DNA from: Acidimicrobiales bacterium
Lineage (GTDB): Bacteria; Actinomycetota; Acidimicrobiia; Acidimicrobiales; CAIXPF01
Length of the DNA: 44,844 nt
Direction of reading: 5' to 3'
NCBI GenBank assembly: GCA_046153015.1
Contig: JBJXGF010000097.1
Span: 1 to 44,844, forward strand
The notes under the pieces are model-generated. The model did not search any database and was not told the DNA's origin. It saw only the letters and a program-made list of their open reading frames with translations. The translations under genes were made by a program, and so were the position numbers. This document shows positions 17,750 to 44,844 of this stretch, one piece after another (positions within the stretch are counted from its first letter, which is position 1; each line of letters opens with the position of its first letter).

Positions 17750-19065
17750 CCCTTGCGCAGTGGCGGGCGGCCGTCGTCGCCCGCCAGCTCGGGGTGCCAG
17801 CGCTCGAAGTGCGCGTGGTGCTGGTCGGTGACCGCACCCGGCGGGTAGTACTGGGCGTAGAAGTCGGTGTCGACGTGCTGGGCCTGGCAGGTCAGGCGCT
17901 GGTACATCGGGTCGAGGTAGGCCGGGAAGCGGCCGTAGGTGTCGTGGACGTACTGGCAGTAGTCCTTGACGATCTGGACCGTCTCCTCGCTGGGCCGCTC
18001 GATCTGCGAGGTGACCTTGTCGGGCTCGAGGTAGGCCTTGGGCTTGTCGGGCTCGTACTGGGACCACTTGCGCTCGAGGAAGGCGTCGACCGCCGCGCCC
18101 ATGTCGTCGTGGTAGGGCGGGGTGAAGGCCTCGAATACCCCGTCGCGGCCGACCGGCACGCTCGGGCCGCGCTTGGCGTCGGCGAAGCGGAAGCCGAGCC
18201 CCGGCACGTCCATCCCGCCGAGGGCGAAGCGGGCGATGTAGCCGGTGTAGGTCCAGCCGCCCAGGCCCATCGCCTGCAGGGCCAGGTTGATGTTCTGGCA
18301 GATGAAGGCCTGCTCGACGACCTGCATCGACAGCACCCGCTGCTCGAGCTCGACGATGCCCATCTGGCGGCCGGAGTCGAGGCGCCCCGAGTCGATCCAG
18401 CGCTGCAGGCCGCAGGGCGCGTAGCCGGCCGTCTCGTCCACCAGCGTGAAGCGGTAGTCGGGCGAGAAGTAGATGAACAGCAGGTTGATGTACTCGAGCG
18501 TCATGTTCGAGACCGGCAGAAAGAGCGTCGTGCCCGGCTTGTTCGCGTTCCAGTGGTTGAAGACGAACAGGCCCGGCAGGCCGGTCGGCATCTGCGCCCG
18601 GGTCGGCTCGAGCTGCTTCTTGGCGCCGCGCACCAGCTCCAGGATGAAGTCGACCTGCTGGTCGCGGGTCTTGTTCTGGAGCGTCGAGATCTCGCCGTCC
18701 TCGGGCATGAGGTTCCACATGTCGAGGAAGTAGAGCCCGTCGTCGTTGGTGAAGAAGAGCTCGGTGCCGTGGTTGGAGCACGAGCTCGGCCAGGTGCGGG
18801 CGGTCCATTGGACCATCGCGTCGGCGCCCATCGAGGGGTCGATGTCGCCCAGGTTGAGCCCGGTGAGGCCGGTGCCGGCCACCAGCAGCAGGGCCTCCTC
18901 GAGCTCGGTCAGCGGCACGGCCTCGTAGGGGCTCTCGTAGCCGAGGGTGCCGGGCATCTCCATCCCGAGCCCCATCCGGCGGCTCTTGCGGTCGAAGACC
19001 GACTGGAAGAAGGGATAGCCCAGGCCGTCGTCGAGGCCGGGGGGGTGGGGGAGGCCCGTGCTCAC
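17746..19065 (-). CDS. Uncharacterised protein, possibly nitroreductase-like fold
   Basis: Coding-like codon usage and GTGA coupling to the acyl-CoA dehydrogenase. RKSRR, RTWPSS and [15 protein letters not shown] resemble FMN-binding nitroreductase motifs. Confidence 0.6.
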
Positions 19066-40581: not shown

Positions 40582-42368
40582 GCACCCTGCGCCCCCTCGA
40601 GACCGACCTCTCGCGCTTCTATGCGATCTTCCCGCAGCCGGCGCTCGCGCGGGACCTGTTCAACATCGTCGAGGGGCACCGGGTGGACTCGGCGATCCGG
40701 CGGGCCTACCCGGGCATCCGCCGCGACATGGCCCTCATCCAGAGCGCCAGCGCCGAGCGGCGGCCGGTGATCGCCAGCCTCTCGGACGCCCAGGCGGCGG
40801 TCGAGTCGCTCCTGCAGCACACCCTGGGCCTGCAGCCGGACCTCTCCGACCTCGCGCCGGCCACCCAGGCCCTGATCGGGCGCGCCGTCATCATGCTCGA
40901 CGAGATCGTGCAGATCGACGCGACGGTGGGCGACGCGGCCGCGCTCACGGGCGAGCTCTACCAGCTCATCGACGAGGGCCTGGCCGACCCGGGCAGCCGC
41001 GCGATGCCCCAGGCTGACGACCAGGAGACCGGCGACCCTCCCCCCGAGGGAGCCGGCGATCCGCCGCCGGCGGGATCGGGCGTCGAGGACTACGAGCAGC
41101 TCGAGCTGCCCCCCTTCATGACCCCGGTCATGGAGGAGCTCGTGCGCCCGCAGTCGGACGCCCCGGTCAAGCGCGAGGCCGAGGGCGCCGAGCCCCAGCC
41201 CGACGGCACCGGCCAGCGCCAGCCCGAGGAGCGCGAGGGCGAGGGCGAGGGCGACAAGGCCATGAGCACGACCGAGACCCAGGCCGGCCAGGGCGCGCCG
41301 GACGAGGTCGCCCAGCAGACCTCCTCCTCGGGCGACGAGGACGCCCCGCCGGGAACGGCCGAGGGGCGCTCCGACGACGCCGAGGGCGGCGGCTCCGACT
41401 CGCCCGAGCAGAGCGGTCTCGGGGATGTCCCCCAGGTGGACCCCGGCGCCGAGGAGGACGAGGACCTGGGCGAGCAGGTCTTCCACTACGACGAGTGGGA
41501 CCACAAGATCGAGGACTACCGGCCGGCCTGGTGCACCCTGACCGAGCACCGCCAGACCCGCACCCAGGAGGGCTTCGTCGCCGCGACCTTCCACGAGTTC
41601 GGCGGGATCGTCACCCAGATCCGGCGCAACTTCCAGCTGATGCGCCCGGAGGCCCTGCGCAAGATGCGCTACCAACTCGAGGGCGACGACCTCGACACCG
41701 ACGGCCTGGTCGAGTACGTGGTCGACCGGCGCGCGCGCATCTCCCCCACCCCGCGGGTCTACATCAAGCGCGACAAGCGCGATCGCGATGTCACGACGGC
41801 CTTCGTGGTGGACATGTCCAGCTCGACCGACCGCAAGATCGACGGCCGCAAGCGGATCATCGACATCGAGAAGGAGGCCCTCCTTCTGATGTGCGAGGCC
41901 CTCGAGGCGATCCGCGACGAGTACGCCATCTACGGCTTCTCGGGATCGGGGCGCGAGGACTGCCAATTCTACGTCGTCAAGGAGCTGGGCGAGCGCTACG
42001 ACGACCGCGTCAAGGGGCGCATCGGCGGGATCTACGCGCGTCAGAAGACGCGGATGGGCCCCGCCCTGCGCCACGCGACCCGGCGGCTGGCCGCCGCCGA
42101 CTCCAACGTGAAGCTGATGATCCTGCTGACCGACGGCAAGCCCTACGACTCGGACACCTACCAGGACAACACCTACGCGCAGGAGGACACCAAGATGGCC
42201 CTGCGCGAGGCGCGCCGGGAGAAGATCCACCTGTTCTGCGTGACGGTCGACCGCGAGGGCGCCGACTACCTGCCGCACATGTACTCGGACGCCAACTTCG
42301 TCGTGGTGGACGACGTGCGCACGCTGCCGCAGAAACTCCCCCAGCTCTACCGCCGCCTCACGACCTGA
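40578..42368 (+). CDS. CbbO/NorD-like VWA protein (probable CTG start)
   Basis: LFNIVEGHRVD, YDEWD..I.DYRPAW, EGDDLD, MIDAS VDMSSST, TRMGPALRHA, LLTDGKP, LPQLYRRLT. AGGAG precedes the CTG. Confidence 0.85.
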   Translation: MSTLRPLETDLSRFYAIFPQPALARDLFNIVEGHRVDSAIRRAYPGIRRDMALIQSASAERRPVIASLSDAQAAVESLLQHTLGLQPDLSDLAPATQALIGRAVIMLDEIVQIDATVGDAAALTGELYQLIDEGLADPGSRAMPQADDQETGDPPPEGAGDPPPAGSGVEDYEQLELPPFMTPVMEELVRPQSDAPVKREAEGAEPQPDGTGQRQPEEREGEGEGDKAMSTTETQAGQGAPDEVAQQTSSSGDEDAPPGTAEGRSDDAEGGGSDSPEQSGLGDVPQVDPGAEEDEDLGEQVFHYDEWDHKIEDYRPAWCTLTEHRQTRTQEGFVAATFHEFGGIVTQIRRNFQLMRPEALRKMRYQLEGDDLDTDGLVEYVVDRRARISPTPRVYIKRDKRDRDVTTAFVVDMSSSTDRKIDGRKRIIDIEKEALLLMCEALEAIRDEYAIYGFSGSGREDCQFYVVKELGERYDDRVKGRIGGIYARQKTRMGPALRHATRRLAAADSNVKLMILLTDGKPYDSDTYQDNTYAQEDTKMALREARREKIHLFCVTVDREGADYLPHMYSDANFVVVDDVRTLPQKLPQLYRRLTT

Positions 42369-42374
42369 CCGCGA

Positions 42375-42670
42375 CGGGGGTAGCCCGCTCGCCCCACCCG
42401 GGGTAAACGACTCGCGGCCGCCCTCCCGCCCGCGAGGCCTGACCCCGGGTAATCCGCTCGCGCGCCGGGGGAAATGGCTCGCAACCGGGGTAAACGGCTC
42501 GCGCCCAAGGGACACGAACCCGCCGTTCTCCACAGGCCGGCCGCCGCGGCGAGATCGCTACCGGGGTAACCAGCTCGCGCGCCCCCGGGGGATCCGGCTC
42601 GCGACGGGGGTATCCCACTCGCCGGGGACCGGGGTAGGCGACTCGCGCCCAACCGGGGTAACCGACTCGC
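42375..42670 (+). repeat. Array of ten iteron-like direct repeats, consensus GGGGTA-N5-CTCGC
   Basis: Copies start at 42377, 42400, 42446, 42467, 42487, 42563, 42587, 42607, 42631 and 42655, mostly 20-24 bp apart. Confidence 0.85.
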
Positions 42671-42702
42671 ACCCGGGACGTCATTCTCCCTGCACAGGCG
42701 GC

Positions 42703-42755
42703 GTTTTTTCCGACCCCTAGAATTAGGGTTGGTAGTTATAGGAAGAACAGTAGGG
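42703..42755. other. AT-rich patch, candidate DNA-unwinding element of the origin
   Basis: TTTTTTCCGACCCCTAGAATTAGGGTTGGTAGTTATAGGAAGAACAGTAG in otherwise very GC-rich DNA, directly after the repeats. Confidence 0.6.
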
Positions 42756-42795
42756 GCCGCGGCCGGCCGCGCCGCATACGCGGCCCGGCCGCGGC

Positions 42796-42813
42796 GCGAG
42801 CGATCTACCCCGG
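42796..42813 (-). promoter_or_regulatory. Inverted copy of the iteron just upstream of rep (possible autoregulatory site)
   Basis: Minus strand reads CCGGGGTA-GATCG-CTCGC. Confidence 0.6.
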
Positions 42814-42871
42814 TTATCTGCCCGCACCCGGCCCCGGCCATCCTCGCCAGCCGTCAGACTTCCCGCCGACG

Positions 42872-43846
42872 ATGACGCGTCCCGCCGCCGACCTCTCGCC
42901 TCTACCCCGCCCCGGCGCGCGCCCGCGGTCGGGTTCGGGCCCGGCCGACGACGTCCAGGTGATCGGCGCCGAGGCTCAGCTCGCGCTGTGCGAGCCCGAC
43001 CACCTGCGTCGCCTCGAGCAGCCGCTCAAGTACGGCTTCGCCGACCGCTCCAGCGCCCGCAAGGGCCTCGAGGTGGCGGCGGGCGTCGCGATCGCCGACC
43101 GGCTCGGCTCGATCCGCCAGACCGCCGGCCCGCCGATCGGCCGCCACGGCTACATGGCCATCGTCTGGCTCGGGTCGCGGTGGCTCCAGCTCGAGCAGCC
43201 GGCGGCGTCCGCGGTCCCCTTCACCCAGTACCGGCTCCTGCACGACTTCGGCTGGGAGGAGTCGGGCAAGAACGCGCGGCAGGCCCTCAAGAGGACGCTC
43301 CTGAACCTGCAGGAGGCCCGCTGGGAGGGCGAGGTCAACGACTCCCTCACCGGCAAGAAGACCCACGAGGACCACTTCGGGATCATCGACCGGGTGCTGT
43401 GGCCGGTCGTCCATGACGGCCGTCTCGAGCGCCTCGGCTACATCTTCCTGGGCAGTTGGTTCCTCGAGCAGCTGCGCCACGAGGCGGGCGTCTACATCGA
43501 CTGGGACGTCCTGCGCGACCTCCCCCCCATCGCCCGAAAGCTCTACGGGCTGCTCGAGAACGACCGATTCGAGCCGGGCGACGAGGGCGAGGAATGGCAG
43601 GCCTACTGGCTGGGGCCGGCCTTCTTCGCGAGCGTGGGGTCCACCTGCAGCCGCGAGCGCGACAATGTCGCAGCCCTCGGCCGGGCCTGCGAGGCGGTCG
43701 CGGGCCATCCGGGCACCGGGTACCGCTTCCGGCGCGAGCGCGTGGCCACCGACGAGGGCTGGGGACAGCAGCTGCTTGTGTGGCGCCCCGCCGGCAGCAC
43801 CGGCCGCAGGGTGACGCGCGGCATCACGCGCGCCGCCCAGGCCTGA
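42872..43846 (+). CDS. Putative plasmid-type replication initiator (RepA/TrfA-like winged helix)
   Basis: FTQYRLLHDFGW..SGK....LKRTLLNL, IFLGSWFLEQL and YIDWDVLRDLPPIARKLYGLL resemble initiator motifs. Lies between the iterons and parA. Confidence 0.65.
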   Translation: MTRPAADLSPLPRPGARPRSGSGPADDVQVIGAEAQLALCEPDHLRRLEQPLKYGFADRSSARKGLEVAAGVAIADRLGSIRQTAGPPIGRHGYMAIVWLGSRWLQLEQPAASAVPFTQYRLLHDFGWEESGKNARQALKRTLLNLQEARWEGEVNDSLTGKKTHEDHFGIIDRVLWPVVHDGRLERLGYIFLGSWFLEQLRHEAGVYIDWDVLRDLPPIARKLYGLLENDRFEPGDEGEEWQAYWLGPAFFASVGSTCSRERDNVAALGRACEAVAGHPGTGYRFRRERVATDEGWGQQLLVWRPAGSTGRRVTRGITRAAQA

Positions 43847-43898
43847 CGAGGCGCGATCGTGGCTGGGCACGGACGAGCCCCCTTCCGAGTGCTGCGCC

Positions 43899-43979
43899 CA
43901 TGCATGCATGCAGGCGCGCCACCAGGCACGCGTGGCAGCAGCAGGACATGAGCGCTGTCCGGCGAACATGCGAGCATGC
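43899..43979. repeat. CATG/GCA-rich short repeats upstream of parA (candidate centromere or operator)
   Basis: CATGCATGCATGCA at 43899-43912, then further CATG copies (GGACATG, GAACATG, GAGCATG). Confidence 0.4.
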
Positions 43980-44710
43980 CGACGGTCATGCCGACACGCA
44001 TCATCACCGTCGCCGCCGCCACGGGCGGCCTCGGCAAGACCACCCTGGCCTACGAGCTCGCCGCTGCGCTGGGTGGTGTCCTGGTGGACCTGGACTGGGA
44101 CGCCGGCGGGGCCACCCGCATGTGGGGCTTCGATCCCACCCGAGCCGCCCGCGCGCCACTGCTCGACGCACTCGAGAGGGGGCCTGAGGGCCGCCCGCCT
44201 CGCGTGAAGCACCGGGCCAACCAGCCCTCGCTGGTGCCCGCGCACCCGGACCTGGCGGCCAGTCGCATCGACGCCGATCTGGTCGGGGACTGCCTGTCGG
44301 CATGGGCGGGCGCCTGGCCGGAGCCCTACGTGGTGGTCGATACCCACCCGGGCGCCAACGCCCTCACCGACGGCGCGATGCAGGTGGCCGACCTGGTGGT
44401 GGTGCCGGTCGTCCTCGGAGCCCGCGAGATGGACGCCCTCGAGGCGATCGTGGCCGACTATGCGGGATATCGCCTGCTCTTGGCGCCGACGATGGTGCCG
44501 CCGGTGCCCCCGCGCCGGTTCGTGGAGCGCCTGGCCGCCCTGGCGGACGGACGGATCACCGTGGCCCCCCCGATCTCCGAGCACCGCTGGATGCGCCGGC
44601 GCCTTCGGCGCGCGGCGCTCGTGACCCAACCGAACCCCGGCGCGCGGGTGCGCGTCGCCGCCGGCGAGCTACGCGCGGTGGCCGAATCCGTGGAGGTGGC
44701 ATGTGGCTGA
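43976..44710 (+). CDS. parA: ParA family partition ATPase (short, type Ib-like)
   Basis: IITVA..TGGLGKTTLA, LVDLD, YVVVDTHPG, ADLVVVPV. Confidence 0.85.
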   Translation: MPTVMPTRIITVAAATGGLGKTTLAYELAAALGGVLVDLDWDAGGATRMWGFDPTRAARAPLLDALERGPEGRPPRVKHRANQPSLVPAHPDLAASRIDADLVGDCLSAWAGAWPEPYVVVDTHPGANALTDGAMQVADLVVVPVVLGAREMDALEAIVADYAGYRLLLAPTMVPPVPPRRFVERLAALADGRITVAPPISEHRWMRRRLRRAALVTQPNPGARVRVAAGELRAVAESVEVACG

Positions 44711-44844
44711 GCAGGCAAGCGGGATCGATCTGATGCGCCGGCGCATCGAGCGCGCGAGCCGCCAGGCGCCGCCCAGCCGGCACCCACGCGAGGAGCCGGA
44801 CGGGGCCGATGACGCGCCGGCGGCGCGGGAGGCTCCTGCGGTCG
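44703..44844 (+). CDS. N-terminus of a probable ParA partner protein, truncated by the window end
   Basis: GGAGG-6 nt-GTG overlapping the parA end. The frame VAEQASGIDLMRRRIERASRQAPP... stays open to the window edge. Confidence 0.55.
   Translation, partial: MAEQASGIDLMRRRIERASRQAPPSRHPREEPDGADDAPAAREAPAV

Follow-up and report, generated by a model that had tools for sequence, protein, structure and literature searches.

An iteron-type replication origin and its metabolic cargo on a ~45-kb plasmid family of Miltoncostaea-like actinobacteria

Results

The analyzed contig probably corresponds to a small circular plasmid

We analyzed a 44,844-nt stretch of DNA (hereafter, the window), which is the entirety of contig JBJXGF010000097.1 (C70) from a 414-contig metagenome-assembled genome (MAG; 4.46 Mb, 82% complete) and in which an initial annotation made from the letters alone had recognized a plasmid-type origin at positions 42369-44844. 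We conclude, with a probability of roughly 85%, that the window is a nearly complete, non-mobilizable, ~45-kb circular plasmid belonging to a plasmid family of the Miltoncostaeaceae (class Thermoleophilia, Actinomycetota) and that positions 42369-44844 are its whole maintenance backbone. The family is one of marine Miltoncostaea-like actinobacteria. This conclusion draws upon the sequence anatomy of the backbone, its conservation in 26 loci, the family and fold membership of the encoded initiator protein (Rep), the circularity of the replicon in relatives, and the distribution of its cargo.

A tblastn search of Rep against 72,556 plasmid records returned a single match, plasmid unnamed2 of Miltoncostaea oceani SCSIO 61214 (NZ_CP064358.1), which is a complete circular record of 46,598 bp typed by PLSDB as non-mobilizable. 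By blastn, the window is collinear with this plasmid from end to end at 67-91% nucleotide identity, and both share a gene order (44 annotated genes) that begins with two ADC-family (acetoacetate decarboxylase) genes, TRAP, DMT, cofDCE, and cofHG and concludes with ilvB, CbbQ, VWA, 'replication initiator protein A', ParA, and a hypothetical gene. The end of the window falls at approximately position 43,875 of plasmid unnamed2 and its start at approximately 44,223, leaving ~347 bp unmatched. Circular permutations of the window were also found in two related genomes, G431 (contig C6, 42,124 bp) and G432 (contig C92, 49,951 bp), in which the gap from the end of the window to its start measures 439 bp and 485 bp, respectively. 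Across the family, the replicon size is 42-51 kb, many of the Rep homologs reside on 41-46-kb contigs, and 10 of the 26 genome loci are on contigs of 40-60 kb. Because the window is collinear with a circular record, is only ~350 bp short, and recurs as circular permutations in two relatives, we consider it to be a small plasmid, rather than a megaplasmid or an integrated element. Thus, the initial annotation was correct in placing the upstream 42 kb on a secondary replicon, while its alternative of a 42-kb region beside an integrated plasmid is contradicted by the adjacency of the window's ends in three relatives. Its suggestion of a chromid or megaplasmid survives only in part: the megaplasmid fails at a size of ~45 kb, and the chromid is partly upheld by cargo that is chromosomal in relatives lacking Rep and partly weakened by the small size of the replicon and its presence in 25 of 111 genomes. 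Scans for tRNA, rRNA, and Rfam families yielded no match across the window, and no k-mer link was found between either end of C70 and the other contigs of the MAG.

It should be noted that a close homolog, plasmid unnamed2, has already been deposited with its origin uncharacterized and that the origin type is ordinary. A literature search on Miltoncostaea, covering titles and the beginnings of abstracts, found no paper on its plasmids; likewise, no paper was found on plasmid unnamed2, whose origin is annotated by pipeline names only. The iteron motif, DnaA box, hairpin, operator, and parA-partner pair of the two plasmids match, whereas plasmid unnamed2 differs in lacking the ~1.27 kb at window positions 17750-19018 (blastn), in a ParA that keeps the KGG signature, and in carrying IS3- and IS481-family transposase genes between rep and parA (locus L007, 40651-42753). 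The latter insertion takes the place of the spacer that holds a (CATG)n array in the window. The two long open reading frames (ORFs) of the 17750-19018 segment have no Pfam match, and copies of this segment with 72-74% identity occur elsewhere in chromosomes of the family, beside a paralog of the AMP-binding gene.

Iterons and associated elements upstream of rep

Upstream of rep are ten direct copies of GGGGTA-N5-CTCGC, seven exact and three with one mismatch, the first of which starts 9 bp past the VWA stop codon (42366-42368). The start-to-start spacings are 23, 47, 20, 20, 76, 24, 20, 24, and 24 bp, and 7 of 9 are therefore within 20-24 bp. Both the count of ten repeats beginning within 10 bp of the VWA stop and their spacing of mostly about two helical turns had been noted initially, and both were reproduced. 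The pattern GGGKW-N6-CTCGC matches the window nine times, eight of them within 42377-42811, compared to 1.69 matches expected by chance and 0 of 100 shuffles that reached nine. In the entire 4.46-Mb assembly, the exact motif occurs 11 times, with eight occurrences in the window and three on three other contigs. Since 8 of the 11 exact matches sit here, the iterons are not a genome-wide repetitive extragenic palindromic (REP) element, a possibility that the initial annotation had named as one that would overturn its reading. Similarly, the motif is not common elsewhere in the genomes of the true hosts.

The iteron consensus of the window and its relatives is aCC-GGGGTA-nnCGa-CTCGC-Gc. There is almost no variation in the GGGGTA and CTCGC halves, in contrast to the inner five bases and the spacers (M. 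oceani and the 26 loci). The iteron core was counted in 26 loci (24 genome loci together with the window and the M. oceani plasmid): the 16,900 bp upstream of rep contain 155 occurrences (9.2/kb) vs. 45 in the other 223,484 bp (0.20/kb), and the array occupies the same position upstream of rep in the relatives. The occurrence of the motif upstream of Rep homologs, which had been proposed as a check, was thereby confirmed. The array agrees with what defines an iteron replicon, for which tandem direct repeats of ~17-22 bp with helical-turn spacing beside rep are expected, and it is accompanied by an AT-rich region and a DnaA box.

The DnaA-box-like sequence lies between the two iteron clusters, and TTNTCCACA has a single occurrence in the window, which is this box at 42526-42534. 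GTT(C/A)TCCACAG is kept in 9 of 10 aligned origins, three have TTATCCACA, and a DnaA box was found in 16 of 24 related loci. A similar box follows each of the iteron clusters, TTCTCCACAGGC (42526-42539, DnaA-box-like) after the first and TTCTCC-CTG-CACAGGC (42684-42699) after the second. GC content drops to 0.55 in 42650-42749 vs. 0.72-0.80 in the flanks, and the AT-rich patch is similar in all relatives compared. The elements are ordered as iterons, AT patch, GC-rich hairpin, inverted iteron, and rep. Thus, the AT patch (~42703-42753) actually precedes the inverted copy at 42796 with the hairpin in between, rather than following it as initially described. Of the two inverted copies reported in the initial annotation, the one at 42796-42811 is exact, while the one at 42549-42564 is present only in a degenerate form (9/11 specified positions). 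A stem is predicted at the hairpin position in 25 of 25 loci, with unrelated stem sequences and a fold z < -2 in 15 of the 25, and there is one compensatory change (C-G to T-A) relative to M. oceani. Possible roles for the hairpin are those of a clamp that confines the unwound region, a terminator lacking a tail, or a single-strand signal. In all relatives, GCGAG-N5-TACCC is joined to a direct half (GGGGTA-N5-CTCGC) just upstream of rep; in the distant group, this putative operator palindrome is close to perfect (…TACCCGGGGTA…), and in the group of the window its right half is degenerate.

Rep is an RPA-family protein with an initiator fold

Rep is 87% identical to the M. oceani 'replication initiator protein A' and exceeds the cut-off of Pfam RPA (PF10134, 'Replication initiator protein A'; 31.5 bits, cut-off 27, E 1.7e-7), so that Rep, initially described as divergent, does not lie outside of the known families. 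Among metagenomic proteins, 144 homologs were found at E <= 0.001, the best 120 of which are all >=61% identical, and many of the metagenomic homologs carry a precomputed PF10134 match. Species-representative genomes contain 26 Rep loci, mostly labelled as Miltoncostaeaceae, Thermoleophilia, or Actinomycetota. An AlphaFold model of Rep using 32 homologs has a predicted local distance difference test score (pLDDT) of 72.6, with residues 80-310 well modelled and the first ~66 residues both poorly conserved and of low confidence. Foldseek matched this model to RctB domains 2-3 (E 6.8e-6), RepE54, Rep complexes with the DNA-unwinding element (DUE), and pi, with E values ranging from 6.8e-6 to 3e-3. 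VIA-align gave similar results, with Z 8.7 for pi (193 aa), 8.4 for RctB (201 aa), 7.9 for pPS10 RepA WH1, and 7.6 for RepE. Residues 67-314 of the model are the region aligned to the solved initiators and contain the two winged-helix domains (WH1-WH2), whereas ordinary winged-helix regulators (Crp/Fnr and MarR) rank below the initiators at Z 5-6.6 with one domain each. The winged-helix initiator fold predicted initially is what the Foldseek and VIA-align comparisons recovered, with RctB, RepE54, pi, and pPS10 RepA as the best matches.

Distant Rep paralogs of 30-36% identity were also observed inside large contigs of the family (G495:C1:621221-621763; G494:C1:448663-449322; G431:C3:446738-447445; G477:C16 and C18). 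These may be integrated plasmids or the origins of other large replicons.

A putative partition locus completes the backbone

Downstream of rep, the initially annotated parA and its coupled partner gene are both present, the latter with a GTG start at 44703 and an 8-nt overlap (Table 1). The rep-parA spacer contains CATGCATG in 11 of 17 loci, and the distant relatives L034 and L035 have (TACG)n instead of (CATG)n, a swap that would be expected for a centromere or operator co-varying with its binding protein. The score of ParA against NCBIfam ParA_partition is 37.5 bits, below the cut-off of 180. Orthologs of the partner are 138-163 aa in length; their conserved N-terminal motif, GIDLMRRRxERAxR-PPP-RRP, is connected through a linker of low complexity to a C-terminal domain that is likewise conserved. 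No Pfam family matches the partner, and its AlphaFold monomer model is all-helical (pLDDT 64.5; C-terminal 79-94) with a best VIA structural match of Z 3.0. From the pattern of its sequence, we infer that the partner may be a ribbon-helix-helix protein.

Type Ib partition systems, such as ParF/ParG of TP228, comprise a small ParA and a small centromere-binding partner. The locus in the window is alike in that its ParA has 244 aa and no N-terminal DNA-binding domain, its short partner gene overlaps the parA stop, the partner has an arginine-rich N-terminal motif, and a repeat array lies upstream of parA. It is unlike ParF/ParG in that the partner has neither a Pfam family nor a model match better than Z 3.0 and in that ParA has Thr at the signature lysine.

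Table 1. Features of the window and their coordinates
Feature	Position	Strand	Description
Plasmid cargo	1-42368	.	Collinear with M. oceani plasmid unnamed2; NCBIfam/Pfam matches
Maintenance backbone, whole	42369-44844		Iterons, rep, parA, partner gene
Iteron cluster 1	42377-42502	+	Five direct copies of aCC-GGGGTA-N5-CTCGC-Gc: 42377, 42400, and 42487 (exact), 42447 and 42467 (one mismatch)
DnaA-box-like TTCTCCACA	42526-42534	+	Spacer between the two iteron clusters
Degenerate inverted iteron	42549-42564	-	Head-to-head with direct copy 42563; same arrangement in M. oceani
Iteron cluster 2	42563-42670	+	Five direct copies: 42563, 42607, 42631, and 42655 (exact), 42587 (one mismatch)
TTCTCC-CTG-CACAGGC box	42684-42699	+	After cluster 2; T-rich CCTGCA core recurs in relatives
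AT-rich patch, candidate DUE	42703-42753	.	Contains TAGAAT (42718-42723)
GC-rich hairpin/palindrome	42754-42797	.	Between AT patch and operator; DNA fold -27.6 kcal/mol, z -2.57
Putative inverted-repeat operator	42796-42825	.	Exact inverted iteron (42796-42811) with a degenerate direct half; 47 nt upstream of the rep ATG
rep	42872-43846	+	324-aa RPA-family initiator, two winged-helix domains
(CATG)n palindromic array, candidate centromere/par operator	43898-43914	.	Upstream of parA
parA	43976-44710	+	244-aa Walker-type partition ATPase; Pfam AAA_31 39.7 bits
parA partner gene, 5' part (47 codons)	44703-44844	+	GTG start, overlaps parA by 8 nt, cut by contig end

The cargo is plasmid-borne in some genomes and chromosomal in others

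The cargo consists of two acetoacetate-decarboxylase-family genes, a TRAP transporter, DMT, cofD-cofC-cofE, cofH-cofG, genes of acyl-CoA and aldehyde metabolism, a cyclophilin gene, a PrmA-like gene, ilvB, a CbbQ-type AAA gene, and VWA. All five of the cof genes exceed their NCBIfam cut-offs, in agreement with the full cof set annotated initially, and Pfam matches were obtained for ADC, DctP, CbbQ, and VWA. Among the 111 genomes of the Miltoncostaeaceae-type family to which G431 belongs, many of which are incomplete MAGs, a close Rep is found in 25 and cofG in 60, with both on one contig in 14. Four of the five plasmid-bearing genomes examined (G495, G431, G432, and G433) have their sole above-cut-off cofG and cofD on the plasmid contig; in G495, the Rep coordinates on this contig (C3) are identical to those of the M. 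oceani record. In the remaining genome, G430, the plasmid contig is incomplete, and cofG and cofD were not found.

In three genomes, G439, G441, and G443, neither Rep nor an iteron cluster was found, and window positions 77-40000 match chromosomal contigs (1.30, 2.82, and 0.52 Mb, respectively) at 65-89% identity. The chromosomal cargo of these genomes is arranged in two blocks ~40-50 kb apart, the second of which is inverted. It is split at exactly two sites, namely the position of the rep/par backbone and a site between an FAD oxidoreductase gene and cofH (G441:C2 1365868-1373084 and 1413869-1439117, with ~41 kb of other DNA between; also G443:C7 and G439:C9). For a cofG-cofH DNA tree, we used 58 rows, consisting of the window and 57 of the 60 loci, with three loci of <1500 nt dropped. 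This tree was made by a quick method with composition warnings and one long branch, and because it is unrooted and lacks an accompanying species tree, the direction of moves is not readable from it. The tree contains at least six changes between Rep-linked and Rep-less rows, and a clearly chromosomal clade is nested among plasmid-borne clades. The approximately unbiased (AU) test rejected the separation of 23 Rep-linked rows from 11 big-contig rows (p 0.0004) and hence a single split between plasmid and chromosome. Two random 20-kb pieces of the G495 chromosome yielded patchy matches of 66-83% in five other plasmid-bearing genomes; thus, the plasmid is conserved no less than the chromosome, and its synteny is much better preserved.

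We also compared the replicon with the chromid criteria of Harrison et al. 2010, as these are quoted in a passage of 10.1101/2025.07.03.662523. Its replication and partition genes are of plasmid type, and it carries genes that are chromosomal in related species. In composition, the G495 plasmid has 72.6% GC vs. 75.7% and 75.3% in two 20-kb pieces of the chromosome (40 kb sampled). By size and universality, the replicon falls short, as it occurs in 25 of 111 genomes, is not the second-largest replicon, and measures 42-51 kb vs. the ~0.8 Mb of G495 that lies outside of C1 and C3. Overall, the replicon is chromid-like in content, though it is small and not universal. As a more tentative proposal, to which we assign somewhat less than even odds, it might be a long-lived, non-mobilizable 'mini-chromid' of the Miltoncostaeaceae, in which a ~2.5-kb iteron/RPA/ParA backbone maintains ~40 kb of metabolic genes conserved in the lineage, among them the sole F420 pathway of the cell; this block would have shifted between plasmid and chromosome on more than one occasion as the family diversified.

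The contig is probably foreign to its bin

C70 probably does not belong to the genome with which it is binned. Rep was detected in 0 of 400 other genomes from the class of the MAG and in 0 of 14 members of its family, and a 20-kb piece of the plasmid searched against the genomes of this class and family gave paralog-level matches only. The largest contig of the MAG (C7) has gene-length matches of 70-85% identity with local synteny in 14 of 14 members of its own family, while it has scraps only in five plasmid-bearing genomes; in each of those five genomes, by comparison, a single contig runs collinear with the last 20 kb of the window (74-84%). Additional copies of cofD and cofE (C109), cofH (C352), and ilvB (C113) are present in the MAG and are 48-61% identical in amino acid sequence to those of the window. 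Since the MAG has copies of its own, the cof/ilvB set of the window is a duplicate in this bin.

Contigs carrying this Rep were also seen in bins labelled Polyangiaceae, Alphaproteobacteria, Bifidobacteriaceae, and Gammaproteobacteria (L042, L044, L030/L033/L036/L038; P0061), which suggests that the plasmid is frequently mis-binned or mislabelled.

Discussion

Weighing the plasmid reading against its alternatives

Several results weigh against the reading of the window as a circular Miltoncostaeaceae plasmid with an iteron origin. No terminal self-overlap was found in C70. The cumulative GC skew of the window has an amplitude of 328 that was also reached by 96 of 1000 block shuffles, and the skew is therefore uninformative. 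The match of Rep to PF10134 is weak and covers only part of the profile (positions 65-192 of 228), no NCBIfam model matches Rep, and its sequence profile gave only chance matches to PDB sequences (E 0.8-0.9). The TM-scores of the Rep fold are low as well (0.25-0.38), because its two domains are oriented unlike those of the solved structures. There is no clear Shine-Dalgarno sequence before the ATG at 42872, and the N-terminus of Rep is not conserved, which together make the rep start codon uncertain. A scan of 42300-44100 for sigma-70 consensus promoters and terminators returned 0 sites of each. The Walker A motif of ParA in the window is TGGLGKT (codon 16 ACG, 44021-44023), as opposed to the KGGVGK[ST] of 17 of 17 relatives, and thus departs from the KGGxxK[ST] signature, although the AAA_31 match still points to the family fold; Thr at the signature lysine may mean impaired partition in this copy or a base-call error. 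As for the host, when the 209 contigs are ranked from the most outlying by tetranucleotide distance, C70 comes only 20th, and the case for mis-binning rests upon one other MAG contig (C7), duplicate genes, and absence from kin. Lastly, Rep-iteron binding, DUE melting, autorepression, and every replication step are things that we infer.

If C70 were truly a part of its MAG, it would reflect a recent cross-class transfer into this other actinobacterial lineage, where a plasmid or chromid would supply a second F420/ilvB set. We consider this unlikely, even though the GC content of C70 (72.2%) is inside the range of the MAG (73.0 +/- 2.1%), its tetranucleotide distance makes it a mild outlier only, and the contamination estimate of the MAG is 1.24%. 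Such a transfer would have to be squared with the absence of Rep and the plasmid from all of the class and family members cited above, with a plasmid typed as non-mobilizable, with the cofD, cofE, cofH, and ilvB that the MAG already possesses, and with the same plasmid in bins of unrelated labels, which suggests habitual mis-binning. Even less probable, in our view, is that the backbone represents a plasmid, either integrated or decaying, that borders on a chromosomal region to which the upstream 42 kb belong. A linear contig without terminal overlap would fit this scenario, as would the chromosomal location of the same cargo in Rep-less relatives. However, the chromosomal versions have neither Rep nor an iteron cluster, whereas Rep, ParA, and the iterons are intact in the window, and the circular M. 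oceani record together with the two permuted contigs places the window's ends side by side.

The repeats might also be imagined as an operator array for a transcription factor or as a small mobile repeat, in which case the Rep-like protein would be a winged-helix regulator. The presence of Crp/Fnr and MarR regulators in the fold list at Z 5-6.6 is in line with this notion, but the top fold matches are all iteron initiators and span both domains (193-201 residues), and Rep is above the Pfam RPA cut-off. In addition, the motif is absent elsewhere, and the array always accompanies rep and par, in the only segment outside the cargo of a plasmid that is proven to be circular and that contains no further annotated replication gene. 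We therefore give this last explanation hardly any credence and retain the reading of the window as a Miltoncostaeaceae plasmid.

Relationship to known iteron replicons and a possible mechanism

The origin conforms to the textbook iteron type and is accompanied by an RPA-family Rep and a type-I-like par locus. Classical theta replicons with iterons include RK2 (oriV/TrfA), mini-F (RepE), R6K (pi), and pPS10 (RepA). Like these, the window has direct repeats spaced by about two helical turns, a DnaA box, inverted iteron halves before rep, an AT-rich region followed by a GC-rich element, and a two-winged-helix Rep. Unlike these, its ten iterons are arranged in two clusters with the DnaA box in between, its iteron sequence is private to its family, and its host is a deep-branching actinobacterium of ~73% GC. 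Furthermore, its Rep is only 8-14% identical to the solved initiators.

By analogy, Rep monomers would bind the ten direct iterons in their two clusters of five, and Rep together with host DnaA, at the box between the clusters, would open the adjacent AT-rich patch, upon which the host helicase and replisome could load to begin theta replication. Rep dimers would bind the inverted-repeat operator before rep and thereby repress rep, while Rep-mediated pairing of iteron arrays might limit the copy number. The plasmid copies would then be segregated by ParA and its small, translationally coupled partner, probably via the (CATG)n array upstream of parA.

Implications

One immediate consequence is a warning that the F420 genes, ilvB, and the PrmA-like gene of the window should not be read as the metabolism of the MAG in which they are binned. 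Within the portion of an F420 review that we consulted, 'plasmid' appears once only, in reference to heterologous expression, and nothing relevant was found among the papers listed by a literature search on plasmid-borne F420 biosynthesis and cofH. In the plasmid family described here, a complete cofactor-F420 pathway is plasmid-borne as the only copy in several genomes and is chromosomal in relatives. The results also define the origin anatomy for an uncharacterized plasmid family from a deep-branching and hard-to-manipulate actinobacterial class, and the ~1.5-kb ori-rep segment offers an obvious basis on which to build a shuttle vector for Miltoncostaea and other Thermoleophilia. If the mini-chromid proposal were true, the replicon would be a plasmid-replicated, chromid-like element in Actinomycetota that is far below the usual size of a chromid.

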